Assembly: GCA_024232965.1 (NCBI GenBank)
Contig: JACKQF010000005.1
Coordinates: 249,632-313,631, forward strand
Length of the DNA: 64,000 nt
Reading direction: 5' to 3'
Source: Verrucomicrobiaceae bacterium
GTDB lineage: Bacteria > Verrucomicrobiota > Verrucomicrobiia > Verrucomicrobiales > Verrucomicrobiaceae
Below are positions 21,297 through 42,480 of this stretch, piece after piece; within the stretch, counting starts at the first letter, position 1; every line of letters starts with the position of its first letter. The notes under the pieces are model-generated. The model searched no databases. It was not told where the DNA came from and saw nothing but the letters and a program-made list of their open reading frames with translations. A program made the translations under genes and the position numbers.

Positions 21297-21359
21297 TCCA
21301 GCGCCCACACTCCCCTTTTCTAACCTTTTCTCAACAGCGCACCCCCTCTCCCTATTGCC

Positions 21360-23018: not shown

Positions 23019-23140
23019 ATTTGTGAACTATGTGTTAGAAAACAAATAAGTGATGGACATTCCCGCCCATCTCCCAGTATTCTCGACCCACTAAGTGCTG
23101 ATATTTTCCTCTTTTCACTCATAATCGACAGCAGTCTCTT

Positions 23141-24424
23141 ATGCCCAATTTCCACTACATCGCCCTGGACCAGAACGGACAAGAAATCGCAGGCGTCATT
23201 GACGCAGTCAGCGATGCCGAGGCCATCAACGCCCTGCGCTCCCAGCAACTCTACCCCACCCAGGTCGTCCAAGAAGGCAAGGGCGACACTGCCAGCATCA
23301 AGAAGCGCGCCCGCACGACTACGGCAAAGGCCAAAGGTAAGGCAGCAGTCAAAGCCACTGCTACTGCGAAGGTCAAGGGCAAGACGCTGATGATCTTCAC
23401 ACGCCAGTTGGCAACCTTGATCGATTCCGGACTCCCTCTGCTGCGTGGACTCACCGTTCTCGGTCGTCAGGAGCCACTTCCGGTGATGAAAAGCACCATC
23501 AACACCCTGGCAGACGCCGTCCAGACCGGATCCACTTTCTCCGAGAGTCTCCAGCAATACCCTCGTATCTTCAACAAGCTCTACGTGAACATGGTCAAGG
23601 CTGGTGAGTTGGGCGGTGTGCTCGAAATTGTCCTCAACCGTCTCGCAGAGTACCAGGAAAAGGCGCAAAAGCTGAAGAACAAGGTCGTCGCCGCGATGGT
23701 TTACCCAATCATCGTCATGTTCATCGCCGTCGCGATCATGATCTTTCTCATGCTCGTCATCGTGCCGAAATTTGAAGGCATTTTCAAAGACATGCTTCAG
23801 GGTAAGCCGCTCCCTTGGCTGACTCAGGTCGTCATCGGCATGTCACGTTGGATCGGCGCCAACTTCGTTTACCTCGCCATTGGTGCCTTCGGCATCGTCG
23901 TTGCATGGAAGATTTTTTCCTCCACCAAGGGCGGGCGTGTCGTCATTGATAAAGCTAAGCTACGGATGCCCATCTTTGGCGATGTCCAGCGCAAAACCGC
24001 CATCTCACGATTCACCCGAACGCTTGGCACCCTCGTGACCTCCGGTGTTCCGATTCTTCAAGCACTGAACATCACCCGCGAAACTGCTGGCAACGTTGTC
24101 GTCTCCGACGCCATCAATAAGGTGCACGATGCAGTGAAAGAGGGTGAGTCAATGGTCGCTCCACTCGATGGCAGCGGCGTCTTCCCTCCGATGGTTATCT
24201 CCATGGTGGACGTCGGCGAGGAAACGGGCCAACTACCTGAAATGCTTCTGAAAATCGCAGACGTTTACGAAGACGAAGTGGACAACTCCGTGTCCGCCCT
24301 CACCTCCCTCCTTGAACCATTGATGATCGTCTTCCTAGCCGTCGTCGTTGGTGTCATCGTTATGGCGCTCTTCCTGCCTCTGATCTCCATCATCCAGAAC
24401 CTCAGTTCCGGCTCCGGCGGCTAG
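23141..24424 (+). CDS. gspF: Platform protein GspF/PilC family, with an N-terminal lysine/alanine-rich insertion
   Basis: 427 aa. Two GspF repeats (GLPLLRGLTVL... and GVPILQALNIT...). Three TM segments. K/A-rich insert KKRARTTTAKAKGKAAVKATATAKVKGK at about residues 52-80. Confidence 0.85.
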   Translation: MPNFHYIALDQNGQEIAGVIDAVSDAEAINALRSQQLYPTQVVQEGKGDTASIKKRARTTTAKAKGKAAVKATATAKVKGKTLMIFTRQLATLIDSGLPLLRGLTVLGRQEPLPVMKSTINTLADAVQTGSTFSESLQQYPRIFNKLYVNMVKAGELGGVLEIVLNRLAEYQEKAQKLKNKVVAAMVYPIIVMFIAVAIMIFLMLVIVPKFEGIFKDMLQGKPLPWLTQVVIGMSRWIGANFVYLAIGAFGIVVAWKIFSSTKGGRVVIDKAKLRMPIFGDVQRKTAISRFTRTLGTLVTSGVPILQALNITRETAGNVVVSDAINKVHDAVKEGESMVAPLDGSGVFPPMVISMVDVGEETGQLPEMLLKIADVYEDEVDNSVSALTSLLEPLMIVFLAVVVGVIVMALFLPLISIIQNLSSGSGG

Positions 24425-24450
24425 AATTCTGGTGAACAACTGCCGCAACC

Positions 24451-25104
24451 TTGATGTCCATTCATCGTATGCAAAACACGACCTCCAAAGGCCTCAGACT
24501 CGCACGCAGAGGATTCACTCTGATTGAACTTCTCGTCGTCATTGCCATCATCGCCCTGCTGTCGTCGCTAACTATCGGTGCTTTCTCGTACGCTACCAAA
24601 GCGGCCGCGAGAAATCGCACCGAGGCGACCTTTGCAGCCATCAAACTTGGACTCACCTCTTACTTCTCCGAGTACAAGGAGTATCCAGAACCAGCCCAAC
24701 CGGATCAAACTATATCCATAGGATCAAAGCGTTACACAAGCGGTGGGGCCGCAATGCTCTATCAAGCCATGAGTGGTGATGGCAATAATGCCATCCTCAT
24801 CGGTGCCGGCGAAAGTGGCGAAAGTTCAAATGGCCAATTCACCAAAGAAGAGGCAGCCCGCACCATGATGCGAGACATGCCACCAACCACTTGGAAAAAG
24901 ATTGAGAACACCTACGTGATGGTAGATGGCTTCAACCACCCCTTCCAATATACCCACGGCGGCAATGGGACCAATGACGATGCGGTCAATCCTAGCTCCT
25001 ATGACCTATGGTCTTACGGCGAGGATGAGCAAAACATCAATCAATCCAGTCACGCTGCTAAAATTGATCCCAAAACGAGCGCCAAGTGGATCAAGAACTG
25101 GTGA
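24451..25104 (+). CDS. Pseudopilin / type IV pilin-like protein with a prepilin N-terminal cleavage/methylation domain
   Basis: RRGFTLIELLVVIAIIALLSS matches the G|FTLIE prepilin signature. Small secreted protein. Confidence 0.75.
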   Translation: MMSIHRMQNTTSKGLRLARRGFTLIELLVVIAIIALLSSLTIGAFSYATKAAARNRTEATFAAIKLGLTSYFSEYKEYPEPAQPDQTISIGSKRYTSGGAAMLYQAMSGDGNNAILIGAGESGESSNGQFTKEEAARTMMRDMPPTTWKKIENTYVMVDGFNHPFQYTHGGNGTNDDAVNPSSYDLWSYGEDEQNINQSSHAAKIDPKTSAKWIKNW

Positions 25105-28612: not shown

Positions 28613-30013
28613 TCAATCAAAACCTAGACGCTTCATCGCCACGGCGGCAGCCTTGGCTCCCATTCGCATGGCGCTGTGCATGTTTGGATAAGTAAACCCG
28701 CCTTGGCGACCCACACTTTGCAGGTTCGGAACGGAATTGACCCAATTCTTCACCTGTTCGAGGTGCGGCTCAAACCCGAGCGCAAATATTGGGTAACCGG
28801 TCTCGCCATGCAGCAAATTCACCTCAACGACGTCCTCGCGGCGGCAGATGTTTTCGAGCTCCAGATCCGTGAAAATACGATCCTTGGCATCGTCCGTTCC
28901 TTGCCATTTTTCATCGCCAATCTCGCAGGTCGTTTCGACAATCAAGACACTGTGGTCAGGCGGATCCACCACTAGACCAGCATTCTTGGGCTCGCCCACC
29001 CGGTGAAAGGCGCGATCGCGGTAGTAAATGTATAGACCGTCGATGCACTTCTCCTTTTTGACCAGCAGACCGTAGATCGCGATTGGCTTGTAGCGGATCT
29101 GCCGGGCCGCAGTCATCACTTCGTCGGCTGGAGATGGCTCAGAACGCTGCACCAGATGCGGCACGGGAATCGTGGAGATGCACTCATCGCAATCCAATTC
29201 ATGGTCCTGCCCTCCGTGGTGGTAGCGAATCTTCGTGACCTTACCCGTAGCTTCGTCGCGCACGATAGCGGTGACTTCTGCGTCCTGGATCACGCGACCA
29301 CCCGCCGCCTGCACCGCCTTGGAAATGCAGCGCGGCATCGCCTCGGCCCCAGTGCGGGAATAGTGCAGCGTCTCTTCCAGCAGAGCGCTATCCACTGCCT
29401 TCACGCTTCGATCTTTGATGCCGATCTTGCCCATAGCCCGCTTGATCACATCGACCGCGCTGAGACGTGGCATTTTCGTCGTGATGAAGGTCGCCGATAA
29501 CTCGCGCGGATGGATCCCCCAGTAGCGGTGGGTGAAATCGCGAAAAAAGAACTCATACAGAGGCTGACCGTAGAGCATGATTAGCGCCTCCTCAGCATCC
29601 TTCGGCGTCCATGGCACAAGCGCGCTGCGAATCTGCGCGGCAAACAGTCCGAGACAATAATACACGAGGGTAAAGAAGGGAATCCCCTTGATCATGTCCT
29701 GAAATTGCAGCGGGTATCGATAAAAGGAGCCCGCCCAGCGGATCTTTGCGTCCAGTTGCACGGGGATGCTCTCTTCCCCCATGATGGACATCATGTCCTT
29801 GTAGATCTCCTCATCAAACTCATGCAGCATGTGGCAGCCCAGATCATACCAGTTCTTCCCGCGCTTGTGACTTGTCGCCAGACCACCGGGTCGATCCCCC
29901 TTGTCAATAACCGTCACTGCCAGACCGGCGCGGCTGAGGACACGGGCGGCATACAAACCACATGGACCACCGCCGAGGACGGCCACGTGGGATTTCGGAC
30001 TGGGAGAACTCAT
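28613..30013 (-). CDS. FAD-dependent oxidoreductase (amine-oxidase / protoporphyrinogen-oxidase-like)
   Basis: N-terminal Rossmann dinucleotide motif HVAVLGGGPCGLYAARVLSRAGLAVTVIDKGDRPGG. Typical length of ~465 aa. Confidence 0.6.
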   Translation of the reverse strand: MSSPSPKSHVAVLGGGPCGLYAARVLSRAGLAVTVIDKGDRPGGLATSHKRGKNWYDLGCHMLHEFDEEIYKDMMSIMGEESIPVQLDAKIRWAGSFYRYPLQFQDMIKGIPFFTLVYYCLGLFAAQIRSALVPWTPKDAEEALIMLYGQPLYEFFFRDFTHRYWGIHPRELSATFITTKMPRLSAVDVIKRAMGKIGIKDRSVKAVDSALLEETLHYSRTGAEAMPRCISKAVQAAGGRVIQDAEVTAIVRDEATGKVTKIRYHHGGQDHELDCDECISTIPVPHLVQRSEPSPADEVMTAARQIRYKPIAIYGLLVKKEKCIDGLYIYYRDRAFHRVGEPKNAGLVVDPPDHSVLIVETTCEIGDEKWQGTDDAKDRIFTDLELENICRREDVVEVNLLHGETGYPIFALGFEPHLEQVKNWVNSVPNLQSVGRQGGFTYPNMHSAMRMGAKAAAVAMKRLGFD

Positions 30014-30232
30014 AGTTAATTCGGGAGAGACAGAGACAGCCTGTTGATTCGCCTGCGACTGGCTTGGTGTCAAGTGTGCCGCCGTCCGCATAGGAGAGAA
30101 TCCTCAGGCCACCCAAATGGTCAACACCATGCAAATACTACCTGCAATCCTTTCATCCATTTGTAATGGCCTTATTCGCGACTCTTGCCTAAAATCACCG
30201 CCAACAACTGATATCACCTTCCCGAAAATTCG

Positions 30233-30937
30233 ATGAATGAAGTCCTTCATGAGGCCCTAGCCATGCACAACCTCCCGGTCACGGTGCTTCTGGGGATCAT
30301 CCTCCTCTATTGGCTCATGGTGCTAGTAGGCGCGCTGGATAGTGATATGGACACCGTCGATATCCACGCAGATACCGATGTCCATCTCGACGCAGATGCA
30401 CACGTCGACGGCCATGCTGACGTTCATTCGGACAACGTGCTGGGTGGGCTTTTCATGCGTGCTGGACGGTTCCTCCGCCTCGGTCAGGTACCCCTCATGC
30501 TCGTCATGAGTATCCTCGCTATCTTCATGTGGCCCATCTCCATGCTGGGAAACTACTACCTGAATGGCACCGCTGACCACCGCAGCACCGGTTTTGCCTT
30601 GCTAATGCTTTTGCCAAATTTCATCGTTAGCGCCCTCGCTACCCGCATGGTCACCGCACCGATCGCTGCGGCTCTGAAAAAACTGTCCATCGAGACAGAC
30701 GCCAATTTGCCCATCGTCGGCAGGCACGGCCGCGTCCAGTCGTTCCAGGTAGATCAGACCTATGGGCAAATCGAAATCCCCACGGATGGAGCCCCCCTTC
30801 TTGTCAATGCACGCACCCTCGATGGTGCAGCCCCTTTGCCCAAAGGCACCCGCGTCATCGTCCTGGAGGCCACTGAAGGCCACCATTACCTCATCCGGGC
30901 ATTGCGCCCCGAGGAGCAAACCACTCTCACTCTTTAA
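30233..30937 (+). CDS. NfeD/YqiJ-like membrane protein with a C-terminal OB-fold and a His/Asp-rich low-complexity segment
   Basis: TM helices (VTVLLGIILLYWLMVLVGA, LMLVMSILAIFMWPI, FALLMLLPNFIVSALA). C-terminal beta-barrel pattern GRHGRVQSF...GQIEIPTDGAPLLVNART...GTRVIVLEATEGHHYLIRAL. Sits immediately upstream of a flotillin gene. Confidence 0.55.
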   Translation: MNEVLHEALAMHNLPVTVLLGIILLYWLMVLVGALDSDMDTVDIHADTDVHLDADAHVDGHADVHSDNVLGGLFMRAGRFLRLGQVPLMLVMSILAIFMWPISMLGNYYLNGTADHRSTGFALLMLLPNFIVSALATRMVTAPIAAALKKLSIETDANLPIVGRHGRVQSFQVDQTYGQIEIPTDGAPLLVNARTLDGAAPLPKGTRVIVLEATEGHHYLIRALRPEEQTTLTL

Positions 30938-30955
30938 CCCAACACCCCCTACCCT

Positions 30956-33046
30956 ATGAATGAGTTATCTACCGTCACCGACTCCTTTTTGTCGAACACC
31001 GTTATGGTCACCGGCACCAGCGTTGTGGTCGTCGTCTTCGGCACCATCATCGCCTTTTCTCGCTTCTATCGAAAGGTCCAGCAGGGCCAGGCGATCGTCC
31101 GCAATGGCGTCGGCGATACGCGCGTCAATTTCAACGGCCTCATGGTCTTCCCAGTCATCCATCAGGCGGAGTACATGGACCTCTCCGTCAAACGCATCGA
31201 GGTAGAGCGCCAAGGCTCCGAAGGCCTGATCTGCAAAGACAACATCCGCGCAGACATCAAGGTCGCTTTCTTCGTTCGCGTCAATAAGAGCGAAGAAGAC
31301 GTCAAGCGCGTCGCACAAACCATCGGCTGCCAGCGCGCCTCCAGCGTTGACACCATCCGCACCCTCTTTGACGCCAAATTCTCTGAGGCACTCAAGACCG
31401 TCGGCAAGCGCTTTGACTTCGTTCAACTCTACAATGAGCGCGATCATTTCAAAGACGAGATCCTCAAAGTCATCGGCACAGATTTGAATGGCTTCACCCT
31501 CGACGACTGCGCCATCGACTTCCTTGAACAGACCGCCATCGAGCACCTCGATCCCGACAACATCCTCGATGCAGAAGGCATCAAAAAGATCACCGAACTC
31601 ACTGCGACGCAGGCAAAACTCGCCAACCAAATTCAGCGCGATAAAGAAAAGGTCATCAAGCAGCAAGACGTCCAGACTCGCGAGGCCGTCCTCGAACTCG
31701 AACGCCAACTCGCTGAAACCGAAGCCAAACAGCACCGCGATGTCCAGTCCGTCAAAGCACGCGAGATGGCGGAAATGATGAAGGTGCAAGAAGAAGAGCG
31801 TCTCAAAGCAGAGCGCGCCAAGATCGCAGCCGACGAAGAGATCGCCATCGCCACCGAAAACAAAGACCGCCAAATCCTCGTCGCTCAGCGCAACAAGGAA
31901 CGAACCGACGCTGTTGAAATCGAGCGCGTCACCCGTGATCGCGACCTCGAAATCATCGATCGCGAACGCATCACCACGCTCAAGTCCATCGAGAAAGAGA
32001 AGTCCGTGGAAGTGGAGCGCAAGAACATCCAGGAAGTCATCAAGGAGCGCGTCGCCCTTGAAAAGACCGTCGTTGTCGAACAACAAAAGATCAAAGACAC
32101 CGAAGCCTTCGCCACCGCAGATCGCGAAAAACAAGTCGCCCTGACCAACGCAGAGAAAGCGGCGCAGGAGCAACTCATCCAAAAAATCAAAGAAGCGGAA
32201 GCCGCCAAGGAAGCCGCACAACTCGCCGCAGAACAGGCCGCATTTACTCACATCCGGGCCGCAGAAGCCTCAAAACAGGCCGCAGAAATGCAAGCTCAAG
32301 AATTGCTCACGCTCGCGGAAGCCCGCCAAGAGGCCTCCACCAAAGACGCCACCGCGACGAAGGCCTTGGCCGAAGCCGAAGCCGCACGCTCCGCCGCCAT
32401 CGGGCTTGGCGAGGCCCAAGTCCTCATGGCCAAAGCCGAGGCTTCGCAGAAGCAAGGCCAGATCGATGCAGAAGTCGCGCAGCTCAAACTCGCGGCGGAA
32501 GCCGACGGCATTACCAAGAAGGCAGAGGCGATGAAACTCCTCGAAAACGCCGGACGCGAGCACGAAGAATTCAAGCTCCAACTCGACAAGCAGAAGGCTG
32601 TCGAACTCGCCCAGATCAGCATTCAGAAAGATATTGCCGCCGCTCAGGCCGGGGTGCTAGGCGAAGCGATGAAGTCCGCCAAGATCGAAATCGTTGGGGG
32701 CGAGAGCCAGTTCTTTGACAAGATCACCAACGCCATCGGCAACGGTCGCGCCCTTGACCGCATGGTCGAAGGCAGCCGCACACTCACCGATGTGAAGGAG
32801 ACCTTTTTCAATGGAGACCCCGACTACTTCAAAGCCCAAGTGCGCCAGCTCGTCGATCAGTTCGGCGTCACCAGCGATGATCTCAAGAACGTCACGGTCG
32901 CCGCGCTCCTGGGCAAACTTGTCGGACTGAATCCTGACTCCGGCACACTGAGCAAGCTCACCAGCATGATCGGTGCTGCCAGTCGCTTCGGCTTTGCCGA
33001 TCAATCCGCTGGCAACCTCCTGGCCGCAAAGAGCGCAAAGAAGTAA
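30956..33046 (+). CDS. Flotillin / SPFH (band 7) family protein, YqiK-like, with a long Ala/Glu/Lys-rich coiled-coil
   Basis: N-terminal TM (VMVTGTSVVVVVFGTIIAFS). SPFH core (QAIVRNGVGDTRVNFNGLMVFPVIHQAEYMDLSVKRIEVER...ICKDNIRADIKVAFFVRV). About 250 aa of EA/KA-rich heptads. 696 aa. Confidence 0.8.
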   Translation: MNELSTVTDSFLSNTVMVTGTSVVVVVFGTIIAFSRFYRKVQQGQAIVRNGVGDTRVNFNGLMVFPVIHQAEYMDLSVKRIEVERQGSEGLICKDNIRADIKVAFFVRVNKSEEDVKRVAQTIGCQRASSVDTIRTLFDAKFSEALKTVGKRFDFVQLYNERDHFKDEILKVIGTDLNGFTLDDCAIDFLEQTAIEHLDPDNILDAEGIKKITELTATQAKLANQIQRDKEKVIKQQDVQTREAVLELERQLAETEAKQHRDVQSVKAREMAEMMKVQEEERLKAERAKIAADEEIAIATENKDRQILVAQRNKERTDAVEIERVTRDRDLEIIDRERITTLKSIEKEKSVEVERKNIQEVIKERVALEKTVVVEQQKIKDTEAFATADREKQVALTNAEKAAQEQLIQKIKEAEAAKEAAQLAAEQAAFTHIRAAEASKQAAEMQAQELLTLAEARQEASTKDATATKALAEAEAARSAAIGLGEAQVLMAKAEASQKQGQIDAEVAQLKLAAEADGITKKAEAMKLLENAGREHEEFKLQLDKQKAVELAQISIQKDIAAAQAGVLGEAMKSAKIEIVGGESQFFDKITNAIGNGRALDRMVEGSRTLTDVKETFFNGDPDYFKAQVRQLVDQFGVTSDDLKNVTVAALLGKLVGLNPDSGTLSKLTSMIGAASRFGFADQSAGNLLAAKSAKK

Positions 33047-33079
33047 GCAGGGAACGCCGATACCCCATCGGCAATCGCT

Positions 33080-36000
33080 ATGCCCGATTCTCCCACTACC
33101 ACCGCTGACCCAAAGCTCGAAGCAGGAGCCTACGAGGTCATCCGCACTCGTCTGACCAAGCATGCAGACGAACTGCGGCGACGTGTCGATCTGCTGAACA
33201 ATGACCGCAAGGCCTTGTTCGGCGGCATCGAAACCACTCTTGCATCGACCGTCCGGCTCACCACGGAAAACAACTGTGTTCCCCGCGATCTAGCCGCCAT
33301 CGGCCCGCAGCGGTTTGTTTTGGGCTACAACGTCCACCTCGGACTGCGCTCGCAGATGCAGGTCGCGGATGTGTTCGCCATCTACGATTACCACCCGGAA
33401 GATCACACATTTCATCCCAACAAAGACGGCCTTCTCAACGACCCAAAGTTCTCGGAAGACTTTGATTACCTCTACCGCTACTACAAAAACGCATCCTTCC
33501 TGAAGTTCCACCGCAATGGTCCCCACCTCTACATGGGCATGCAGGTCGGGCGTGATATCAGCGAGGTCAAGGTCTTCAAGTGGCTCGTCGATGACGACAA
33601 AGGAACGATCCAATATCTCGGCAATCGCTTTGATCACGAATTCGTCTTCCCCTCACCGCAGGAGTTCGAATGGAAGCGGGCGCGGCGCGAGATGTATCGC
33701 CATGGCGAGCATCCACACGTCTCCATCGAAGACCGCGTTTTCGTCGAAACCGTCGGAGGCGATCTGACCGTCAAGGTTGAAAACAACACCGCCAACGGCA
33801 AGGGCATCTATTCAGAGCCCGTCGAAAACAAAGACCAGACGCTCGACGACGCAGAGTTTCACTACGCCATCATCGGCAATCTGATCCTCCTCAAGATCCT
33901 GCCGTACCAAGAGAAGGAATACCGGCACCTCGTCTTCAACGAGCGCACCCAAGAGGTGCATCGCATCGATAGCATCGCTGAATCCTGCGTGCTGCTGCCA
34001 GATGATCACGGCATCATCTTCCCCAAGGGTTACGCGCTCCAGACCGGGGAAATCAAGAGCTTTGATACCGGCCTTCCAGTGATGCAATTCGAGCGGAAAA
34101 TTGCCTCTTCAAATGGCGAAGACACACTCTTCGTCTTTCATCATGTCGAAAGCGGCACCTACCTGCTCTATGCTTACAACCTGATTGAACAGGGCGTGGG
34201 CACACCGCTCATCAGCAACGGTTACAGCCTCTTTCCCACCGGTGAGCTTGTCCTTATTCAGGGCGACCCAGAGCCACGAAAGCATCACGTCATCCAAGTC
34301 TGGACCACTCCGTTTTTGAGTGATGGCGTCGCTGCTGCTCGGACCAGCGCCAATGGCTCACTGCTTTCAAAGATCGGCAATTCCGACATCGTCCGCTGCA
34401 TGGCAGAATGCCGCGGCGTGTTGACCCTACTGGCAAAAGAAGACAGCTTCAGTGGTCTCTACATCGAGCTATCACGACGCTCTGGCGATATCATTGATAG
34501 CTATTTCTGGATCGACAAACCAGAGACGCACCGCATCAAGGAGACGCTGGTCGAAATCAAAGGTGCCGCCGAAGCCGCGTTGGGCGAATTTGAAAAGGTC
34601 CGCCGTATGCGCAAAAACGCGCGCGACCAGACAGACACGCTCCGCACCAAGGTCAGTAAGAGCCTCAACGAAGCCTCCGGCACCGACTCCAGCGACATTA
34701 TCAGTTTTGTCAAACACCTGACCACACTGCGCGAACTGCGAGGCCAGGTGATCGCGCTACGGGACGTGCGCTACACCGTGCCGGAGGAGTTGACAGAGAT
34801 GGAGGAATCCATCACCGCGGGCACAGATCGCCTCAGCCAGCAGTGCGTCACCTTCCTCCTACGCCCCGAAGCACTTGATCCCTATCGCCAGCAGATTGCA
34901 GAACAAAAGGCCCTCATCGCCAATGTCAAAAAAGTCGCCGAAGCAGAAGAGGTCGAACAGGCCCTTGCGCAGTCCGGCACAGAATTGGAAATGCTCATCA
35001 GCGTCGTCGGCGGTCTGAAAATCAAAGACGCCACCGAGACCACCCGCATCATTGAGAGCATCTCAGAGCTGTATGCACAGCTCAACCAAGTGCGATCCGT
35101 GTTACGCAATCGCCGCAGCGACCTGGCAAAGGCAGAAGGCAGCGCTGAATTTCAGGCACAACTCAGCTTACTCAATCAAAGCGTCGCGAACTACCTGGAG
35201 GTCTGCACCACTCCAGAGAAATGTGATGAGGCACTCACGCGAGTGATGGTGCAGCTAGAAGAAATCGAAGGCCGCTTCAGCGACTTCGAAGACTTCACCG
35301 CTGACCTCACCACCAAGCGTGAAGAGATCTATACCGCATTTCAGTCCCGTCGGCAGGCCCTTGTCGAGAACCGCAACAAACGCTGCCAGGCACTCGGCCA
35401 ATCCGCAGAACGCATCCTCACCAGTTTGCGCAATCGCGTCGTCACCTTTGCCAAGCCCGAGGAAGTCCACGCCCACCTCGCCTCCGACGTCATGGCGGTA
35501 AAGTTGCGCGACCTCATCGAAGAACTGCGGAAGCTGGGCGATAGCGTCCGCGCCGACGAACTCGGCACACGCTTCAAGACCCTGCGTGAAGACGCCCTCA
35601 AGCAGATCCGCGATAAAGCAGATCTCTTCTCTGAAGGTGGTGATCTCATCCAATTCGGCAGACACAAATTCACCGTCAACCGCCAACCGCTGGAGCTGAC
35701 CACTTTGCCGCGCGACGGAGAATTGTTCTTCCACCTCACCGGCACCCGCTTCTTTGAAAAGGTCCAACATCCCGATCTCGACTCTTGCCGATCCGTTTGG
35801 GAACAGGCCGTCATCTCAGAAGATGCCACCGTCTATCGCGGCGAATTCCTTGCGTGGAAGTTCATGCAAACTCAGTTGCACAGTGATGCCGAGCCTACAC
35901 TCGAAGCCATCCGCGACTTCATGCACCAGCGCTATCAGGAAGGCTATACCAAAGGTGTGCACGATCACGATGCCTTCCTCATCGTCAGTGAACTGATCAA

Positions 36001-38062
36001 AATGCACCGCGCGCTCGGCCTCCTGCGTCACTCCCCCAAGGCACGCGGCCAAGCTCTGCTCCATTGGCACGCATGGCCCGATGGGCCAGAGAAAAGCGCC
36101 TTTGATGCAATGATGCTCGCCCGTGGACGCATGGGCGCATCAGGTGCCTCACCAGCTCTATCGACCTCCACCAATATGCCGGAAGCAGCCACCACGGCTG
36201 CGCTGCTGGACGAACTCATGGCACGCGATTCAAAAGCGCCGCGCCTGCCCGTCACCCGCTCCGCACAGGCTGTCGAACTCGTCCGCAACTTCCGCAAGAC
36301 ACTGACCGCCAAGCGCATGTCAGCGGACTTTGACGCAGCGATGGAATCACTGAAGAACGAGCCAAAGCACCGCTTTCAGATTATCCTCGAGTGGCTGCAA
36401 GCCACCAGCAGTGAATGCGAAGAAGGCACCACCATTGAGGCCGCAGCACTGCTACTCATCAACGATCAACCACCCGCGACTCTTCCGCTATCTCCACCGT
36501 CCAAGGCCCAAATTAAGGGCCTCACCGGATCACACTCCCGAATTGATCAAGGCAACCTCACGCTCGACTACCACGAATTTACCGAGCGCCTCGCTCATTA
36601 CGAAGCTAACGTCGTGCCCATGTTTGAACGCTTCACCGCTCTGAAGCACGAACTCACCACCGCCAAGCGTGCGGCCCTCCGTCTTGATGAATTCAAAGCC
36701 GGCGTACTCAGTTCGTTCGTTCGCAATCGATTGCTCGACCAAGTCTATCTTCCACTCATCGGCGCGAACCTCGCCAAACAACTTGGCGCCGCCGGTGACA
36801 ATACCCGCACAGATCGCATGGGCCTACTCATGCTGATCTCCCCACCGGGCTACGGAAAAACGACCTTGATGGAATACGTCGCCAACCGTCTCGGCATCAC
36901 CTTTGTCAAAGTCAACGGACCCGCCATCGGCCATCGCGTTACCTCGCTCGATCCCGCAGAAGCACCGAATGCCAGCGCCCGCGAGGAGGTGGAAAAGATC
37001 AACCTCGCCTTTGAAATGGGTGATAACGTCATCATCTACCTCGATGACATCCAGCACACCAACCCAGAGTTTTTGCAAAAGTTCATCTCCCTCTGCGATG
37101 GCAGCCGCAAGATCGAAGGCGTCTATAGAGGCAAAGCCCGCACCTATGACCTGCGTGGACGCAAAGTCGGCGTCGTCATGGCCGGGAACCCCTACACCGA
37201 AATCGGCGGGAAGTTTCAAGTCCCAGACATGCTGGCCAACCGAGCAGATACCTACAACCTTGGAGATATTCTTGGCGGGCACGAGGCAGCCTTCAAAGAC
37301 AGCTACATCGAAAACGCCCTCACCAGCAATGCCGTGCTGGCCAAGATCGCCGCACGCAGCCACAAAGACGCGCTGACCATCCTCCAAATCGCGCAGACAG
37401 GCAGTCGCGAAGGCATTGAATTTGAGAGCAACTGCGGTGCCGATGAAGTCAACGAAGCCGTCGCCGTCATGGAAAAACTCCTGCACATCCGCGAGATCAT
37501 CCTGCGCGTGAACCAGGAGTACATCCGCAGCGCCGCGATGGAGGATGCCTACCGCACAGAGCCGCCGTTTAAGCTTCAGGGCAGCTATCGCAACATGAAC
37601 CGCATCGCAGAAAAAGTGCTGCCGCTCATGACCGACGCAGAGGTCCAGGCCATCATCGAAGACCACTACCGCGGCGAATCCCAAACGCTCAGCCAAGCCG
37701 CCGAAGCCAACCTCCTGAAGTGGCGCGAGATCAACGCCCTCATCACCGAGGCCGAGGCCAAACGCTGGGATGAAATCAAACGAACCTTCGGACGCAACCT
37801 CCTCACCGGCGGTGCCGGAGACAACGACCCCGTGTCCCGCATCACCGGACAGCTCAGCGCCTTCAACGTGGGCCTAGAAAAGATTGGCGATGCCGTCTCC
37901 CACCCCACCCTCTCCGCCACCACTATCAACCAGCTCACAAAAATCATTAGCGATCTCCGCGCCGTGCCCGTGAATGTAGAAATCAAAGTTCTGCCTGTGG
38001 AGCAAAAGAACGAATCCGACCTCCCCGTGCAGGTGGACGGCGAGGTGCGGCAAGGGGGATAA
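33080..38062 (+). CDS. Giant (1660 aa) protein of unknown function with a C-terminal MoxR/AAA_5-like AAA+ ATPase domain
   Basis: Single uninterrupted ORF. Walker A LISPPGYGKTT (nt ~36.85 kb). Walker B VIIYLDDIQHTNPEFLQKFISLCDG. Sensor-1 VGVVMAGNPYTE (MoxR-like ...ATQNPIE). N-terminal ~1200 aa have no recognisable domain (beta-rich ~450 aa, then helical/coiled-coil). Confidence 0.7.
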   Translation: MPDSPTTTADPKLEAGAYEVIRTRLTKHADELRRRVDLLNNDRKALFGGIETTLASTVRLTTENNCVPRDLAAIGPQRFVLGYNVHLGLRSQMQVADVFAIYDYHPEDHTFHPNKDGLLNDPKFSEDFDYLYRYYKNASFLKFHRNGPHLYMGMQVGRDISEVKVFKWLVDDDKGTIQYLGNRFDHEFVFPSPQEFEWKRARREMYRHGEHPHVSIEDRVFVETVGGDLTVKVENNTANGKGIYSEPVENKDQTLDDAEFHYAIIGNLILLKILPYQEKEYRHLVFNERTQEVHRIDSIAESCVLLPDDHGIIFPKGYALQTGEIKSFDTGLPVMQFERKIASSNGEDTLFVFHHVESGTYLLYAYNLIEQGVGTPLISNGYSLFPTGELVLIQGDPEPRKHHVIQVWTTPFLSDGVAAARTSANGSLLSKIGNSDIVRCMAECRGVLTLLAKEDSFSGLYIELSRRSGDIIDSYFWIDKPETHRIKETLVEIKGAAEAALGEFEKVRRMRKNARDQTDTLRTKVSKSLNEASGTDSSDIISFVKHLTTLRELRGQVIALRDVRYTVPEELTEMEESITAGTDRLSQQCVTFLLRPEALDPYRQQIAEQKALIANVKKVAEAEEVEQALAQSGTELEMLISVVGGLKIKDATETTRIIESISELYAQLNQVRSVLRNRRSDLAKAEGSAEFQAQLSLLNQSVANYLEVCTTPEKCDEALTRVMVQLEEIEGRFSDFEDFTADLTTKREEIYTAFQSRRQALVENRNKRCQALGQSAERILTSLRNRVVTFAKPEEVHAHLASDVMAVKLRDLIEELRKLGDSVRADELGTRFKTLREDALKQIRDKADLFSEGGDLIQFGRHKFTVNRQPLELTTLPRDGELFFHLTGTRFFEKVQHPDLDSCRSVWEQAVISEDATVYRGEFLAWKFMQTQLHSDAEPTLEAIRDFMHQRYQEGYTKGVHDHDAFLIVSELIKMHRALGLLRHSPKARGQALLHWHAWPDGPEKSAFDAMMLARGRMGASGASPALSTSTNMPEAATTAALLDELMARDSKAPRLPVTRSAQAVELVRNFRKTLTAKRMSADFDAAMESLKNEPKHRFQIILEWLQATSSECEEGTTIEAAALLLINDQPPATLPLSPPSKAQIKGLTGSHSRIDQGNLTLDYHEFTERLAHYEANVVPMFERFTALKHELTTAKRAALRLDEFKAGVLSSFVRNRLLDQVYLPLIGANLAKQLGAAGDNTRTDRMGLLMLISPPGYGKTTLMEYVANRLGITFVKVNGPAIGHRVTSLDPAEAPNASAREEVEKINLAFEMGDNVIIYLDDIQHTNPEFLQKFISLCDGSRKIEGVYRGKARTYDLRGRKVGVVMAGNPYTEIGGKFQVPDMLANRADTYNLGDILGGHEAAFKDSYIENALTSNAVLAKIAARSHKDALTILQIAQTGSREGIEFESNCGADEVNEAVAVMEKLLHIREIILRVNQEYIRSAAMEDAYRTEPPFKLQGSYRNMNRIAEKVLPLMTDAEVQAIIEDHYRGESQTLSQAAEANLLKWREINALITEAEAKRWDEIKRTFGRNLLTGGAGDNDPVSRITGQLSAFNVGLEKIGDAVSHPTLSATTINQLTKIISDLRAVPVNVEIKVLPVEQKNESDLPVQVDGEVRQGG

Positions 38063-38253: not shown

Positions 38254-39057
38254 CTACAACTGTCCCAAGGTCCACCGCACCGCGTTCGAGATCAACCGCC
38301 GCACAGATGCCTGCGCCACGTCCTCAGGTGCGCCCAGGCTTGTGTAAAAAACCCGCGCCTTCCCAGGGCCATAGAGTCGCGTCCAAGCGATGGGCTGAGC
38401 CGGCTCGATCCCTTGGGCGGTCCCCAGTAACAGCGGAGAGGCATCGGCAGCCAAGGGCAGCACTCGGTAGAGCGATTGATACCCACGGATGGTCCCCGGC
38501 TCCACCCCCTCAAGCAGCGGACTGGCTTTTGCAGCAGCAGGATGGACTTCCACCCGATAGGGCAGCCCCTTGGTTTCGTAGCCCGTGTTCTGGCAGCCCA
38601 AAACTTCAGGAGTAAACTCGGGCCAAGCAACACAACCCTCAGGCAGCGGTGGATCCTTTGGACTCACCGCGAACCCATGATTGGCAGTGCGAATTCCCAA
38701 CAAAGGCTTCCCCGCCGCAAGGTGCTCCCGGATAGCCTCCAGATCCGCCAGCGGTGGCGTGGCACGACGCACAAACACAATCAACAAATCCGCAGTCTTG
38801 AGCGCAGGTGCCAGCCCCTCAAGTCGAGTCGGCTTTGGCTGATTCCCCTGTACAATCGTGACATGATGCCCAGCGGGCCGCAGTTCTTTTTCAGCGAAGG
38901 CCGAGAGAAAATTGACCGCATCGTAGTTGTTTGGATCTTCCACCGTAACGCAAACGATTTCCGCCGACCTCAGATTCACGCAAAGCAAACCGAACAAAAC
39001 CAGTTGGACCCAATGCCTTGTGCGATGTCCGAATGGGATAGGAAAACTGAGGATCAT
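38254..39057 (-). CDS. Secreted ThuA-like / class-I glutamine-amidotransferase-like domain protein (tentative)
   Basis: Start set at MILSF... 18 nt inside the upstream gene's end. Hydrophobic N-terminus. IVCVTVEDPNNYDAVNF...TADLLIVFVRR...GKPLLGIRTANHGF pattern, reminiscent of ThuA/GATase1-like folds. Confidence 0.3.
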   Translation of the reverse strand: MILSFPIPFGHRTRHWVQLVLFGLLCVNLRSAEIVCVTVEDPNNYDAVNFLSAFAEKELRPAGHHVTIVQGNQPKPTRLEGLAPALKTADLLIVFVRRATPPLADLEAIREHLAAGKPLLGIRTANHGFAVSPKDPPLPEGCVAWPEFTPEVLGCQNTGYETKGLPYRVEVHPAAAKASPLLEGVEPGTIRGYQSLYRVLPLAADASPLLLGTAQGIEPAQPIAWTRLYGPGKARVFYTSLGAPEDVAQASVRRLISNAVRWTLGQL

Positions 39058-39071
39058 GATGATGACGAAGG

Positions 39072-41234
39072 CTAACGCACCGTGATGAAATCGTTGTGAT
39101 TTAGGAGAGTGTGAACAATTGCGGTCCTGGCGGTGGTGGGATCTCCGAGAGTTGGGAGAGCTTCCAGGCATGCATTCATTTCTTCTTCGCTTGGTGGCGT
39201 GGCGAGGATGAGTTGAAATGCAGCCTGAATAAAGGGGCGGTTCTCGGTAGGCAGCGCCTTCGCGATGGATTCGGCAGCAGACAAAGCGATGCCTCCATTC
39301 ATCAGCGCCAGCGCCTGTTGCGGAACGATGCTTTCGGCACGGCGGTAACATTCGAGGATGTTGGCGTTGTCAAAGGTATTGAGGAATGCAGCGGCGTTGT
39401 CGCGTGAATGAGTGAGATACAGGCTGCGACGTTGAACTTTGGCCTCTTCGTTATCGCCGAGAGGTGGACCACCCAAAGTTGAATCTAATCGTCCAGACAA
39501 TTGCAGGAGGCTATCACGCATGGTTTGCGCATCCAATCGGATGGCGTTCATGCGCCAATACATTTTGTTTTCAGGATCACGTTCTGCATCGATGCTGGGC
39601 GCGTTCGCGGTGCTGCTGGTCATACCGTAAGTATCGGAAAGCACCATGAGGCGATGCAGGTGCTTCAGGCTCCATCCGCTGTCCATAAACTCGACCGCTA
39701 GCCAATCCAGCAGCGCCTGATGTTGCGGGGCTGGGCTGCGGCGTCCAAAGTCCATGACATCCGCAACGAGAGGCTGCCCGAAATGGCGGAGCCACAAGTG
39801 ATTCACCAGGACGCGAGCCGTCAGCGGATTTTGCCGATCTGTGATCCATACTGCCAATGCTGTGCGACGACCTGTGCTAGTTTGCGGAAACGGCAAGTAG
39901 AGCGTAGCATCCTCCTCATCGGGGCCTTCACGCGCCTTCAACGATCCGACGATGCGGTAAGGTTGGCCTTGCCCCTTTTTCTGATTCGCGATGGCGGTGT
40001 GCATCGCCGTCTCTGCTGCGGATTTTTTATCTGGTTTGGCCTCCGCTACCGCGAGCTTTGCCTTCGCGACCTCGTAGGCGAGATTGGAAGCAACATCTTG
40101 CCGTCGGATAGCTCGCACTTTGCACTGTGCCGCCTTGATCTTTAGGACGGCAACTTCAGCGCCAACGCCCTTGTGCAAAGCAGCCTTCGCGGTTTGGAGT
40201 TCTCTGATGGCGGCGGCGATCTGATCTCCCTTCACAAATTTCTGCGTCTCGGGCTTCGCTGCGTGGATGGGCAAGGACACGGGTGTGATCTGAAGCGGCT
40301 TAAAGGCCAGCGCCGCAGGGATAGCAGGCGCAATGGCGGCCGAGGTGTCTTGGTTATTGTCGTCACCTTTAATGTGCAAGTAGGTGGCCTGTTGCAAATG
40401 TAAATCGTAGGCCCGAGGAAGTCCGTCCTTTTCAAGATCAGGCTGCCCAGGCAGCACATCCAAACGCACATGATAGGGTTCGAAGATGGCACGCATAGCG
40501 TAGTAGTCCTCGTGCGTGAAGGGATCGTACTTATGCGCGTGGCACTTTACGCAGTTCATGGTGAGGCCGAGAAAGGCCTTGCTAGTGTGTTCGATGACGT
40601 CGTCTAGCCAAGTTGTGCGATTGAAGAGGTAATAGTTGCGAGCCAAGAACCCTGTCGCACGGAGAACGTCAGGATCATCAGGAGCGATCTCATCACCGGC
40701 GAGCATCTCTGTGATCATGCGGTCGTAACCCTTGTCCGCATTCAGCGATTGAATAATCCAGTCGCGCCAATGCCAGAGATGCTTCTGACTATTGCGCAAC
40801 TGACTGCCAAGACCGTACCAATCGGCATACCGCCAGATATCCATGAAGTGACGGCCCCAACGCTCGCCGTATTGGGGTGAAGCAAGAAGGCGATCGACAA
40901 CCCGACGACGAGCCCCCTGAAGGTCTGTGCCAGCGTCTTTTTTAAAAACCTGCATCTGCTCAGCGCTGGGTGGGAGTCCGATGAGATCAAGGTAAACACG
41001 CCGCAACCAGAGGCTTGGTGAAGCAGCAGGCTGGGGGATGAGGCCAGCGGCTGTTCGTTTTGGTTGAATCAATTCATCGATGGACCGCGACCCGCCCTCG
41101 GCCACCTCCGGCGCAACGAAGGCCCAATGCGGAGGGCCAGATGCGGGCAATGGAGGACGATCTGTACCCGACAACTTTCCCGCTGTCACAGACATTAGCG
41201 ACAGGGCTAGAAATCGAGCGAAATGGGCAGTCAT
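39072..41234 (-). CDS. DUF1549/DUF1553 domain protein (PSD1 family without cytochrome-c modules)
   Basis: Signal-like MTAHFARFLALSLMSVTAG. The start at 41234 avoids overlap with the divergent M20 gene. DUF1549 (YLDLIGLPPSAEQMQVF). DUF1553 (NCVKCHAHKYDPFTHEDYYAMRAIF). Confidence 0.75.
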   Translation of the reverse strand: MTAHFARFLALSLMSVTAGKLSGTDRPPLPASGPPHWAFVAPEVAEGGSRSIDELIQPKRTAAGLIPQPAASPSLWLRRVYLDLIGLPPSAEQMQVFKKDAGTDLQGARRRVVDRLLASPQYGERWGRHFMDIWRYADWYGLGSQLRNSQKHLWHWRDWIIQSLNADKGYDRMITEMLAGDEIAPDDPDVLRATGFLARNYYLFNRTTWLDDVIEHTSKAFLGLTMNCVKCHAHKYDPFTHEDYYAMRAIFEPYHVRLDVLPGQPDLEKDGLPRAYDLHLQQATYLHIKGDDNNQDTSAAIAPAIPAALAFKPLQITPVSLPIHAAKPETQKFVKGDQIAAAIRELQTAKAALHKGVGAEVAVLKIKAAQCKVRAIRRQDVASNLAYEVAKAKLAVAEAKPDKKSAAETAMHTAIANQKKGQGQPYRIVGSLKAREGPDEEDATLYLPFPQTSTGRRTALAVWITDRQNPLTARVLVNHLWLRHFGQPLVADVMDFGRRSPAPQHQALLDWLAVEFMDSGWSLKHLHRLMVLSDTYGMTSSTANAPSIDAERDPENKMYWRMNAIRLDAQTMRDSLLQLSGRLDSTLGGPPLGDNEEAKVQRRSLYLTHSRDNAAAFLNTFDNANILECYRRAESIVPQQALALMNGGIALSAAESIAKALPTENRPFIQAAFQLILATPPSEEEMNACLEALPTLGDPTTARTAIVHTLLNHNDFITVR

Positions 41235-41301
41235 GCGGGGCAGCAATACGTTGCGAACGGGGCATCCTTTGCAGTGGACGATTTCATCAGACTGTGGCTG
41301 A

Positions 41302-42480
41302 GTGTTGGCGATGAACTTCCGAATGCCCGAAAGCGTGATCGAACTGGCCCAGGCACTGGTGCGCATTCCATCGGTCAACCCGGACGGCGATCCTGGCACG
41401 GACTGCATCGGCGAAGAAGCCTGCGCGCGCTATGTGGCTGACTTTTTGGAAGCCGCAGGAGCTGAGGCCTTTCTGGACGAGGTCGTGCCAGGCCGCCCAA
41501 ACGTCATCGGGCGATTCAGCAGCACGCCTTCAACGGATGGGCAGAAGAAGCCACGCATCGTCTTCGGTCCCCACACAGACACCGTCAGCGTGGGCGGAAT
41601 GACCATTGATCCCTTTGGCGGAGAGATCCGCGATGGCCGTCTGTGGGGCCGCGGCGCGTCCGACACCAAGGGCACAATGGCGTCGATGCTGTGGGCACTC
41701 TGGGTAATGCGGAAGGAGATACCGGATCTCGCCGTCGAGGTACACTTCGCCGGGTTCATGTCAGAAGAGTCAGCTCAACTGGGCTCCCAACACTTCGCCA
41801 AGCACCACGGTCCGTACGATCTGGCATTGGTGGGCGAGCCAACGGAATTGCAAATCGTCCACAAGCACAAGGGCTGCGTCTGGGCGGACGTGATCACCAC
41901 AGGAGTGGCCTGCCACGGCGCTACGCCCGAGCGAGGAGTGAATGCAATCGTCAAAATGGCCTGTCTGATTGATGCGCTCGACACAACTTTTCGCGAGGAA
42001 CTGGCCGCCGCAGATTCCGATGAGGTGCTCGGCCACAGCACCATCAACCTCGGCATGATTAACGGCGGCACCCGATCAAACATCGTCGCTGACCACTGCA
42101 TGCTACGAGTGGACATGCGAGTCACCCCAGGGCTTCTGGCGAAGGGTGGCGGGCTGAAACTCTTGGAGAACTTTGTGACCAAAATTGACCCCACTGCGTC
42201 CGTGAAATTGAGCAGCCAATCACACGCGCTCGACACCGCCCCAAACCAACCCGGCATCCGCAAGCTCCAAGGCTGCGGCGCAGGATTGGTCGGCGCCCCA
42301 TGGTTCTGCGATGCGGCATTTCTCGCGGCCGGGGGAACACCAGCCATCGCCATCGGCCCGGGCTCTATCGCTCAGGCACACACGAAGGATGAGTTCATCA
42401 CCCTCGCTGATCTGGAAGCTGGCGCTGCATTTTTCACAGACTTTTTGAAATCACTGACAACCTGGGATGTGAGCGTATGA
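41302..42480 (+). CDS. M20-family metallopeptidase (ArgE/DapE-like deacylase)
   Basis: LVRIPSVNPDGD...GPHTDTVSVG...GRGASDTKG...HFAGFMSEE. Metal ligands are typical of M20. Confidence 0.8.
   Translation: MLAMNFRMPESVIELAQALVRIPSVNPDGDPGTDCIGEEACARYVADFLEAAGAEAFLDEVVPGRPNVIGRFSSTPSTDGQKKPRIVFGPHTDTVSVGGMTIDPFGGEIRDGRLWGRGASDTKGTMASMLWALWVMRKEIPDLAVEVHFAGFMSEESAQLGSQHFAKHHGPYDLALVGEPTELQIVHKHKGCVWADVITTGVACHGATPERGVNAIVKMACLIDALDTTFREELAAADSDEVLGHSTINLGMINGGTRSNIVADHCMLRVDMRVTPGLLAKGGGLKLLENFVTKIDPTASVKLSSQSHALDTAPNQPGIRKLQGCGAGLVGAPWFCDAAFLAAGGTPAIAIGPGSIAQAHTKDEFITLADLEAGAAFFTDFLKSLTTWDVSV

Follow-up and report, generated by a model that had tools for sequence, protein, structure and literature searches.

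A verrucomicrobial YqiJ-flotillin-AAA+ gene triad as one case of a computationally described operon

Bacterial flotillins are widely studied, and their mechanism is still disputed; we know of no energy-consuming partner of these proteins. Functional coupling of an SPFH assembly to an AAA+ ATPase at the membrane is established for HflK/HflC-FtsH and for prohibitin and the m-AAA protease. FtsH, a classical AAA protease, is anchored in the membrane, and its transmembrane (TM) and periplasmic parts are located inside the periplasmic HflK/C cage. The pairs YqiJ-YqiK from E. coli and YuaF-FloT from B. subtilis are homologous to the products of the first two genes of the triad considered here, and their genes show the same order and tight spacing. 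In E. coli MG1655, however, yqiK is followed by the sibD/ibsD locus, and there is no third gene, unlike in the window (the whole 64-kb stretch of verrucomicrobial DNA that was analysed).

An operon with the architecture found in the window has been described computationally by Ravi et al. (2024, mSystems, PMC11237479). As presented in the main text and one supplementary file of that paper, the operon exists in forms with a CesT/Tir-PspA dyad and in "abbreviated" forms without it, the latter being "more widely distributed"; the neighbourhood of ANH61663.1 from Dokdonia donghaensis serves as an example. [quoted passage not shown] The operon occupies one paragraph and one table row there, with no structure model, ATPase clade, operon counts, or experiments in the main text and this supplementary file (PMC11237479). 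The initial annotation of the window had assigned the triad to no described system, which does not hold since Ravi et al. already describe the operon; the system is known, in silico only, and is not a new discovery. A literature search on family members found no experimental work, the only in-silico description being that of Ravi et al., and nothing relevant emerged for DUF3686 or PF12458, or for flotillin in combination with either MoxR or "DNA repair ATPase".

The window shares with this operon all three proteins and their domain architectures, including the propeller/coiled-coil/AAA+ organization of the largest one (AlphaFold2, Foldseek), and corresponds to the abbreviated form. It lacks the CesT/Tir-PspA dyad that defines the full form, as well as the PLD gene: phmmer searches with Bacteroidota PspA and CesT proteins against ORFs of at least 60 aa across the 64 kb gave no match. 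The Bacteroidota loci, in turn, match the published architecture gene for gene, and the Flavobacteriia layout is that of the Table S3 row.

The locus and its two membrane proteins

The triad is encoded on the forward strand by gene 1 (30233..30937, 234 aa), gene 2 (30956..33046, 696 aa), and gene 3 (33080..38062, 1660 aa), as defined by ORFs and their translations, with intergenic gaps of 18 and 33 nt, respectively. The coordinates, strand, lengths, and gaps given in the initial annotation proved to be exact, as did its statement that the neighbours are divergent or convergent: both the upstream flank (28613-30091, an FAD/amine-oxidase-like protein) and the downstream flank (38254-39351) lie on the opposite strand. 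The surroundings are of a housekeeping type, with secY, map, and hisA-like genes and genes for a HAD hydrolase, an FAD oxidoreductase, and a deacetylase; among the flanking genes, read as translations, neither mobile elements nor defence genes were seen. The support for the presumed co-transcription consists of the tight spacing, the conserved gene order, and the fact that no convincing terminator was seen between the genes in a promoter/terminator scan of the locus, whose counts equal the shuffle expectation and are uninformative.

Database searches were empty for the first two proteins, so their identity was set by direct comparison with E. coli yqiJK. For gene 1, there were no Pfam matches even at E <= 10, and none in NCBIfam or PDB sequences, profiles included. 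For gene 2, no Pfam model matched even at E <= 10, Band_7 and Flot included, though both of these match YqiK, and NCBIfam and PDB sequence searches, again with profiles, were empty. Judged from such comparisons, gene 1 encodes a YqiJ/YuaF-type short NfeD membrane protein and gene 2 a YqiK-type flotillin, in keeping with the labels "NfeD-like" and "flotillin" that they had initially received.

The alignment of the gene 1 family matches E. coli YqiJ over its full length (hhalign probability 94.7%, E 6e-8). Hydropathy predicts three TM segments, with an Asp/His-rich loop (residues 36-67) following the first of them, while the C-terminal segment corresponds in the alignment to the OB-fold portion of YqiJ and is predicted to adopt this fold. 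Like the NfeD-type partners, the gene stands directly 5′ of the flotillin gene on the same strand.

The gene 2 product is 31% identical to E. coli YqiK over 471 aa (BLASTP, E 3e-50), the match covering the TM, SPFH, and coiled-coil regions, and the relationship is also evident in hhalign (probability 99.9%, E 3e-33). It has the layout of a flotillin: a single N-terminal TM segment (hydropathy) precedes an SPFH/band-7 domain, and a long coiled coil rich in Glu and Ala leads to the flotillin C-terminal region. The TM segment is followed by RFYRK, and by the positive-inside rule the bulk of the protein would be cytoplasmic. Homologues are named "flotillin family protein" or "YqiK" by NCBI and JGI. 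The protein exceeds YqiK in length by 143 aa, and its subfamily is far more conserved across phyla than the 31% identity to YqiK suggests, with SPFH regions from different phyla showing 67-70% identity to the window protein.

Distribution and conservation of the triad

The gene for the giant third protein is present in at least 588 species genomes, and its homologues number more than 4,800, with 897 cluster representatives at 50% identity; full-length giants among the matches listed are mostly 1,600-1,900 aa. The gene-neighbourhood check suggested in the initial annotation was based on 60 informative loci (those fetched with 3.3 kb or more of sequence upstream) from Verrucomicrobiota, Planctomycetota, Bacteroidota, Desulfobacterota, Clostridia, and Fibrobacterota (at least six phyla). 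The full triad, in the same order and on the same strand, is kept in 52 of them, and the flotillin-giant pair in 57. Three loci (L032, L043, and L058) have the giant without an adjoining flotillin, and five have no detectable YqiJ; hence, neither partner is strictly obligatory in cis. Plasmid records extend the range to Deinococcus and Pseudomonas, and the triad is present in Deinococcus, Flavobacteriia, and Hymenobacter. Plasmid pQBR103 of Pseudomonas fluorescens SBW25 carries the SPFH and giant genes; for Proteus mirabilis and Vibrio, the search covered only the giant, which it matched.

The pairwise-identity matrices of the three proteins correlate (r 0.74-0.82, values confounded by phylogeny), which fits inheritance as a unit. 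By its gene order and strand, the triad is a conserved unit across many phyla rather than a chance neighbourhood. The outcome named at the outset as fatal to the idea, that the giant belongs to a well-characterised family standing by chance beside a flotillin in one genome, was not observed, DUF3686 and DUF7902 being uncharacterised and the linkage general. A conserved fourth gene was also sought, many loci having 0.3-2.4 kb between flotillin and giant, and was rejected: the ORFs in these gaps do not cluster together, and the downstream genes are likewise unconserved.

In 14-15 Bacteroidota loci, genes for PspA_IM30 and CesT_Tir_1 are located directly 5′ of the triad. These two genes are directly upstream in pQBR103 as well. 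The Bacteroidota loci also have the divergent HTH regulator of the published operon.

The giant protein and its AAA+ module

The gene 3 product is a soluble DUF3686-DUF7902-AAA+ protein of an uncharacterised family, matching the Pfam models DUF3686 (E 1.5e-177), DUF7902 (E 2.4e-28), and AAA (E 4e-8); hydropathy gives no TM segment, and there is no signal sequence. The AlphaFold2 model mb21dde1383c3, which covers the propeller and helices with a mean pLDDT of 82, revealed that the N-terminal 400 residues, not recognized initially, form a beta-propeller. After a helix (residues 15-47), residues 53-409 (33236..34306, forward strand, as for all features below) build seven blades of 28 strands, the core of DUF3686. 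Next comes a coiled-coil stalk of long antiparallel helices of 49-58 residues (residues 410-850, 34307..35629), within which Pfam places DUF7902 (residues 597-680, 34868-35119). The "large alpha-helical middle" noted previously is thus confirmed, the helices reaching 58 residues between 415 and 849. Residues 851-1204 (35630..36691) comprise two small beta units (856-894 and 1142-1163), a helical region that includes a poorly conserved stretch (1001-1140, with a cross-phylum identity of only 16%), and a linker helix (1164-1199). The chain ends with a C-terminal helical extension and a low-confidence tail (residues 1521-1660, 37640..38059); residues 1521-1610 show 35% conservation and the tail shows 7%.

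Two giant homologues carry the JGI name "phage shock protein A". Segments 410-860 and 860-1200 were compared with a PspA alignment by hhalign, which gave a probability below 1%, and the name was dismissed as coiled-coil noise.

The single AAA+ module (residues 1205-1520, 36692..37639) has the fold nearest to MoxR/AAA_5 members. Its Walker A (SPPGYGKTT, residues 1254-1262, 36839-36865) and Walker B (VIIYLDDIQH, residues 1317-1326, 37028-37057) are intact, as are the candidate sensor 1 (N1370) and Arg finger (R1388); a pre-sensor-1 beta-hairpin is modelled at 1344-1357, and the lid bears an invariant QGSYR motif (1500-1504). The core shows 69% conservation across phyla, and the catalytic motifs are invariant across 62 diverse homologues, so the ATPase is probably active. 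Walker B has Asp-Asp instead of Asp-Glu, which may point to slow, switch-like hydrolysis.

No aromatic pore-loop motif was found in the loop after beta-2, either in the sequence or among the invariant columns, and the module resembles MoxR, midasin, and dynein. On both grounds, a conformational remodeller or chaperone is more likely than a threading unfoldase. Compared with the MoxR family (CbbQ, NorQ, RavA) and midasin, the module here follows a propeller and coiled coils and accounts for the last third of a protein of 1660 aa. It also differs in its DD Walker B, and AAA_3 matches weakly and in only 3 of 16 members. It may differ in the helix-2 insert as well, since in the AlphaFold2 model residues 1280-1297, between beta-2 and helix 2, form only a loop (pLDDT about 87-89), with no beta-hairpin. 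MoxR ATPases usually act together with a VWA/MIDAS partner. Here, Pfam detected no VWA domain in the three operon proteins, and clustering of the ORFs that flank 80 loci gave no conserved VWA-like neighbour, the window flanks being read as translations.

Proposed role and alternative readings

The locus is one case of a widespread operon, and we regard it as somewhat probable that its ATPase acts under envelope stress to remodel the flotillin assembly or clients of that assembly. At the cytoplasmic face of the inner membrane, the flotillin would form an SPFH cage or microdomain, held in place by the N-terminal TM segment. The YqiJ-like protein would reside inside the enclosed membrane patch, its OB-fold tail touching the flotillin as in other SPFH-NfeD pairs. 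The soluble giant would oligomerise via its AAA+ module, probably into a hexamer, and reach the flotillin assembly or its clients (e.g., PspA polymers encoded elsewhere) by its coiled-coil stalks and beta-propellers. ATP turnover could then drive the assembly, disassembly, or reshaping of membrane-bound assemblies. The physical interaction, oligomeric state, target, and direction of remodelling are the parts of this proposal that we infer. The topology of the three proteins (no TM segment or signal, one N-terminal TM segment, and three TM segments for giant, flotillin, and gene 1 product, respectively) is compatible with giant and flotillin sharing one side, presumably the cytoplasmic one. A role as an envelope-stress module appears most likely; since the window has neither PspA nor CesT, the stress link is borrowed from other lineages. 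The evidence favours a membrane-microdomain-associated, ATP-driven machine, much as imagined in the initial annotation, and the unit is conserved; only its placement outside any described system was mistaken.

The likeness to HflK/HflC-FtsH is one of analogy: an SPFH-family protein is paired with an AAA+ machine, but here the ATPase is soluble, MoxR-like, and devoid of a protease domain, and, like the flotillin, it would be located on the cytoplasmic side. Vps4 with ESCRT-III from archaea and eukaryotes offers another analogy, combining an AAA+ ATPase and membrane remodelling with, in some lineages of the present family, linkage to a PspA/ESCRT-III-family protein. According to a 2025 review, bacteria apparently have no Vps4-like ATPase to regulate PspA/ESCRT-III polymers (PMC7619361). 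It may tentatively be suggested that the giant fills this gap as an ATP-driven remodeller of membrane scaffolds in bacteria, a functional analogue rather than a homologue of Vps4 or NSF. Bound to the flotillin (SPFH) cage, it would build up or take apart this cage or PspA/ESCRT-III polymers under envelope stress. Across at least 588 species, the flotillin subfamily is almost always found beside an AAA+ protein of 1,600-1,900 aa, and both proteins are unusually conserved across phyla, which provides a concrete and testable candidate for an energy-consuming partner of flotillins. The operon is found in tractable organisms (Deinococcus, Flavobacteriia, Hymenobacter, and, for the SPFH and giant genes, P. 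fluorescens SBW25 with pQBR103).

Alternatively, the giant might be a MoxR-style assembly chaperone that matures or inserts a cofactor or subunit in a membrane complex, with flotillin and NfeD as a client-concentrating platform, a scaffold and not a substrate. CbbQ and NorQ, the closest solved structures to the AAA+ module, are maturation/activation chaperones; AAA_5 matches its full core. The missing pore-loop motif and the "chaperone-like" roles mentioned in the portions of Ravi et al. cited above (PMC11237479) point the same way. Neither the operon nor its flanks, however, hold a VWA/MIDAS partner or a conserved client gene, and a flotillin so strongly conserved looks like a direct, specific partner of the giant; we find this alternative rather unlikely.

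A membrane-associated function in anti-phage defence or abortive infection is improbable for the triad, even though it is large, multi-domain, and ATPase-containing and is encoded on some megaplasmids, with a PLD/HKD nuclease-like gene near some loci. The PADLOC-DB 2.0 matches to LmuB are weak (E 6.5e-5 and 6.3e-4) and limited to coiled-coil residues 481-867, genes 1 and 2 match nothing in this database, and 50,697 phage records contain no match at all. The housekeeping neighbourhood, the linkage to PspA stress genes, and a cross-phylum conservation unlike that of fast-evolving defence genes likewise led us to reject defence as the main reading.

The combination of beta-propeller and helices in a protein from a verrucomicrobium recalls a protocoatomer-like membrane coat (beta-propeller plus alpha-solenoid) tied to PVC-type endomembranes, and Foldseek does match the propeller to Sec12, DCAF1, the clathrin terminal domain plus linker, and IFT-A propellers (E about 2e-6). 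Nevertheless, these matches are generic, with TM-scores of only 0.07-0.14 normalised to the query, the helices of 49-58 residues are of the coiled-coil type instead of short solenoid repeats, and the family occurs equally in Bacteroidota, Clostridia, Deinococcus, and Proteobacteria; a coat protein was rejected as very improbable.

Finally, the database name "DNA repair ATPase" would make the giant a repair enzyme standing beside a flotillin by chance, which we consider extremely improbable: the NCBI product names, the Pfam description of DUF3686 ("ATPase involved in DNA repair"), a weak RuvB_N P-loop match (E 1e-4), and Foldseek matches to RuvB are set against the absence of any DNA-binding, nuclease, or helicase module in Pfam, NCBIfam, or the AlphaFold2 models, the lack of literature behind the name, and conserved neighbours that are membrane proteins. 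The value of the locus lies in exposing this unsupported annotation and in pointing to an under-studied system described in silico only.

Gene Order and Conservation of the Triad

The three genes follow one another on the plus strand, with gene 1 (30233–30937) encoding a YqiJ/NfeD-type membrane protein of 234 aa, gene 2 (30956–33046) a flotillin of 696 aa, and gene 3 (33080–38062) a 1660-aa DUF3686–DUF7902–AAA+ protein, referred to here as the giant. Genes 1 and 2 are separated by 18 nt and genes 2 and 3 by 33 nt, and both flanks of the triad are occupied by minus-strand genes, exactly as in the initial annotation. Since the genes share a strand, lie so close together, and the terminator scan of the locus revealed no convincing terminator between them, their co-transcription is likely. 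Counts in the promoter and terminator scan did not exceed the shuffle expectation, and obvious features are absent from the triad junctions in the window.

Homologues of the giant are numerous: more than 4,800 in a collection clustered at 90% and 897 representatives at 50%, the full-length proteins among those listed being mostly 1,600–1,900 aa long. An alignment of 62 diverse members, used to scan one genome per species, detected relatives in at least 588 species genomes. The 80 retained loci come from Verrucomicrobiota, Planctomycetota, Bacteroidota, Desulfobacterota, Clostridia, and Fibrobacterota. Searches of all their ORFs with an HMM for each of the three families in the window bore out the grouping of the genes proposed initially: among the 60 loci whose upstream DNA extends to 3.3 kb or more, the YqiJ-like protein, the flotillin, and the giant are encoded in the same order and on the same strand in 52. 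In five others (L048, L057, L059, L070, and L071), flotillin and giant are found and the YqiJ-like gene is undetected; in the remaining three (L032, L043, and L058), the giant stands alone. The soluble ATPase is inherited together with two membrane-anchored partners, which are of a known scaffold type. The three proteins have correlated pairwise-identity matrices (r 0.74–0.82), which fits inheritance as a unit, with shared phylogeny contributing to r. Cross-phylum conservation is striking for both the SPFH region of the flotillin (mean identity to the window protein 67–70%) and the AAA+ core of the giant (mean 69%). A plasmid search found the triad in Deinococcus as well, and the giant was matched in records of Proteus, Vibrio, Photobacterium, Halomonas, Streptomyces, and Nonomuraea; no phage record matched it.

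Public collections contain proteins that share 93–97% identity with the giant and the flotillin, and the exact window flotillin sequence is also present on a MAG contig of GCA_020439895.1, where the neighbouring genes are the same. In Limisphaerales/Pedosphaera-type Verrucomicrobiota (L048, L057, L059, L071, and L075), both flotillin (about 720–810 aa) and giant (about 1,750–1,910 aa) are longer, and a YqiJ-like gene is undetected upstream of the flotillin; L071 and L075 carry a PLD/HKD gene downstream. The flotillin–giant gap reaches 0.3–2.4 kb in L023, L028, L049, L074, and about 20 other loci, mostly from Bacteroidota, and holds one to three small ORFs each (lipoprotein-like, small membrane proteins, a DUF559-like endonuclease), which lack homology to one another. 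This junction seems tolerant of insertions, whereas it measures only 33 nt in the window.

As read from translations, a type II secretion/type IV pilus-like cluster lies 5′ of the triad (19629–25104), with a tandem pair of secretion ATPases of the GspE/PilB type (555 and 552 aa) alongside a platform protein of the GspF type and a pseudopilin-like gene. The minus-strand ORFs listed at 38254–39351 (365 aa) and 39072–41408 (778 aa) overlap by 280 nt. The real start of the former is probably further downstream, because its N-terminus is Arg/His-rich and of low complexity; the translation of the latter has a PSD1/DUF1553-type look.

Architecture of the Giant

In Pfam, the giant matches DUF3686 (residues 31–476, E 1.5e-177), DUF7902 (residues 597–680) and, weakly, AAA/AAA_5 near residue 1250; a TM segment was not found. 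AlphaFold2 models of residues 1–1200 (pLDDT 82) and 1001–1660 (pLDDT 74) predict a helix (residues 15–47) followed by seven four-stranded blades, 28 strands in all (53–409), for which Foldseek retrieves the beta-propellers of Sec12, DCAF1, the clathrin terminal domain, and IFT-A. Then come very long helices of up to 58 residues (415–849), a small beta unit (856–894), a helical region (900–1130) poorly conserved at 1001–1140, a second small beta unit (1142–1163), and a linker helix (1164–1199). A single AAA+ module (about 1205–1520) precedes a helical C-terminal extension with a low-confidence tail (1521–1660). Two homologues of 1,650–1,680 aa (P0035 and P0046) bear the JGI name ‘phage shock protein A’, which is probably a coiled-coil artefact, since the giant’s helical regions have no homology to PspA in a profile comparison (probability below 1%).

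The AAA+ active site is apparently intact. The 62 homologues compared, just 31–49% identical to the window protein, invariantly keep SPPGYGKT (Walker A), DDxQH (Walker B, where the Ile in between is nearly invariant), GNP (sensor 1), NR with the Arg-finger candidate R1388, and the lid motif QGSYR. The Asp-Asp Walker B may make hydrolysis slow. Evidence on the AAA+ clade is mixed and leans towards MoxR. Foldseek ranks Ycf2-FtsHi, RuvB, ClpB/Skd3, and Cdc6 slightly above NorQ and CbbQ; in the sequence-profile search of the PDB, classical AAA proteins are matched over the Walker-A half only. The initial label ‘MoxR-type’ is reasonable as a structural description, given that Pfam AAA_5 matches all 16 members over the entire core and that the model has a pre-sensor-1 beta-hairpin, but it does not extend to full membership, as a clear helix-2 insert is not seen and no VWA partner is found among the operon proteins or conserved flanks. 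No aromatic pore-loop motif is present in the loop that follows beta-2 (GPAxGxxVTSLDP). This absence and the MoxR/midasin-like fold both favour a role as a chaperone or conformational remodeller over one as a threading unfoldase.

The Flotillin and the YqiJ-like Protein

Judging by sequence, gene 2 clearly encodes a YqiK-type flotillin. BLASTP aligns it with E. coli YqiK over 471 residues (E 3e-50, 31% identity) spanning the TM segment, SPFH domain, and coiled coil; the hhalign probability is 99.9%, and its homologues are called ‘flotillin family protein’ or ‘YqiK’ in NCBI/JGI. However, hmmscan assigns gene 2 to no Pfam family even at E ≤ 10, and none of its best 120 homologues (P0121–P0240) has a precomputed Pfam domain, unlike E. 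coli YqiK itself, which matches Band_7 and Flot. Domain-based SPFH surveys would therefore overlook the whole giant-associated clade. The missing match may arise because the Glu/Ala-rich coiled coil triggers the composition filter of HMMER. A single N-terminal TM segment is followed by basic residues, so that most of the flotillin would lie in the cytoplasm under the positive-inside rule; the same rule presumably places both soluble domains there.

Gene 1 belongs to a quickly diverging family, with only 32 homologues found, and searches of Pfam, NCBIfam, PADLOC, and PDB sequences returned no match. The aligned sequences of 24 of these homologues nevertheless match E. coli YqiJ (MG1655) over the whole length (hhalign probability 94.7%, E 6e-8), including the C-terminal segment that Pfam defines as YqiJ_OB in E. 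coli. Hydropathy indicates three TM segments. Between TM1 and TM2 lies a loosely repetitive Asp/His-rich loop (residues 36–67, window 30338–30433, plus strand; DSDMDTVDIHADTDVHLDADAHVDGHADVHSD), whose length differs widely across homologues and which might bind metal ions or protons.

Linkage to PspA and a Possible Mode of Action

Clustering of flanking ORFs revealed three more conserved genes upstream of the triad in 14–15 Bacteroidota loci: those for a PspA/IM30 protein (Pfam E 9e-41), a CesT_Tir_1 protein (E 5e-56), and a divergently transcribed HTH regulator; in a few loci, a PLD/HKD gene lies nearby. In some lineages, the operon is tightly linked to PspA stress genes. The initial annotation regarded the system as undescribed, but the same architecture, with the CesT/Tir–PspA linkage, has already been published (Ravi et al. 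2024, mSystems, PMC11237479; bioRxiv 2020), and the Dokdonia donghaensis row of its Table S3 is identical in layout to the Flavobacteriia loci fetched here. Since PspA, CesT, and PLD were not found in the window, its triad is the abbreviated form of that operon, devoid of the CesT/Tir–PspA dyad. Literature searches on DUF3686 and PF12458, and on flotillin in combination with either ‘DNA repair ATPase’ or MoxR, returned nothing beyond Ravi et al. 2024, and the ATPase goes unmentioned in the classic survey of SPFH operons (PMC2636767), a Pseudomonas SPFH study, and another PSP survey. The system is known as a comparative-genomics observation, with experimental studies absent from the literature searched, and the finding is a rediscovery of a computationally known system. 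Added here are the synteny counts, the seven-blade propeller and stalk anatomy, the placement of the ATPase as MoxR-like, and the unusually strong conservation of the partner flotillin between phyla.

The family assignment is made with high confidence. As for the most likely function, the flotillin would build an SPFH cage or microdomain that encloses a patch of membrane containing the YqiJ-like protein, and the giant would oligomerise via its AAA+ ring. Its propellers and coiled-coil stalks might then engage the flotillin assembly or clients, including PspA polymers, and ATP turnover would assemble, dismantle, or reshape them during envelope stress. That the giant specifically remodels a flotillin or PspA assembly is a tentative proposal, held at somewhat less than even odds. 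Its main rival casts the giant as a MoxR-style chaperone for another membrane client and the flotillin as a platform only. A defence role of the triad, a coat-protein role of the giant, and a DNA-repair role are poorly supported; many homologues are called ‘DNA repair ATPase’, a name that is unsupported for the giant.

What drives flotillin and PspA dynamics in bacteria is a long-standing question, which this system could make directly testable. A convenient experimental entry is pQBR103, a well-studied environmental megaplasmid of P. fluorescens SBW25, where a ten-gene array on one strand (record 84437–97641) joins the two PspA-associated operon classes: YjfI (CesT-like), PspA, rhomboid, DUF2491, DUF350, DUF1190, and glutathionylspermidine synthase are followed by an uncharacterised small ORF and then by SPFH and the giant.
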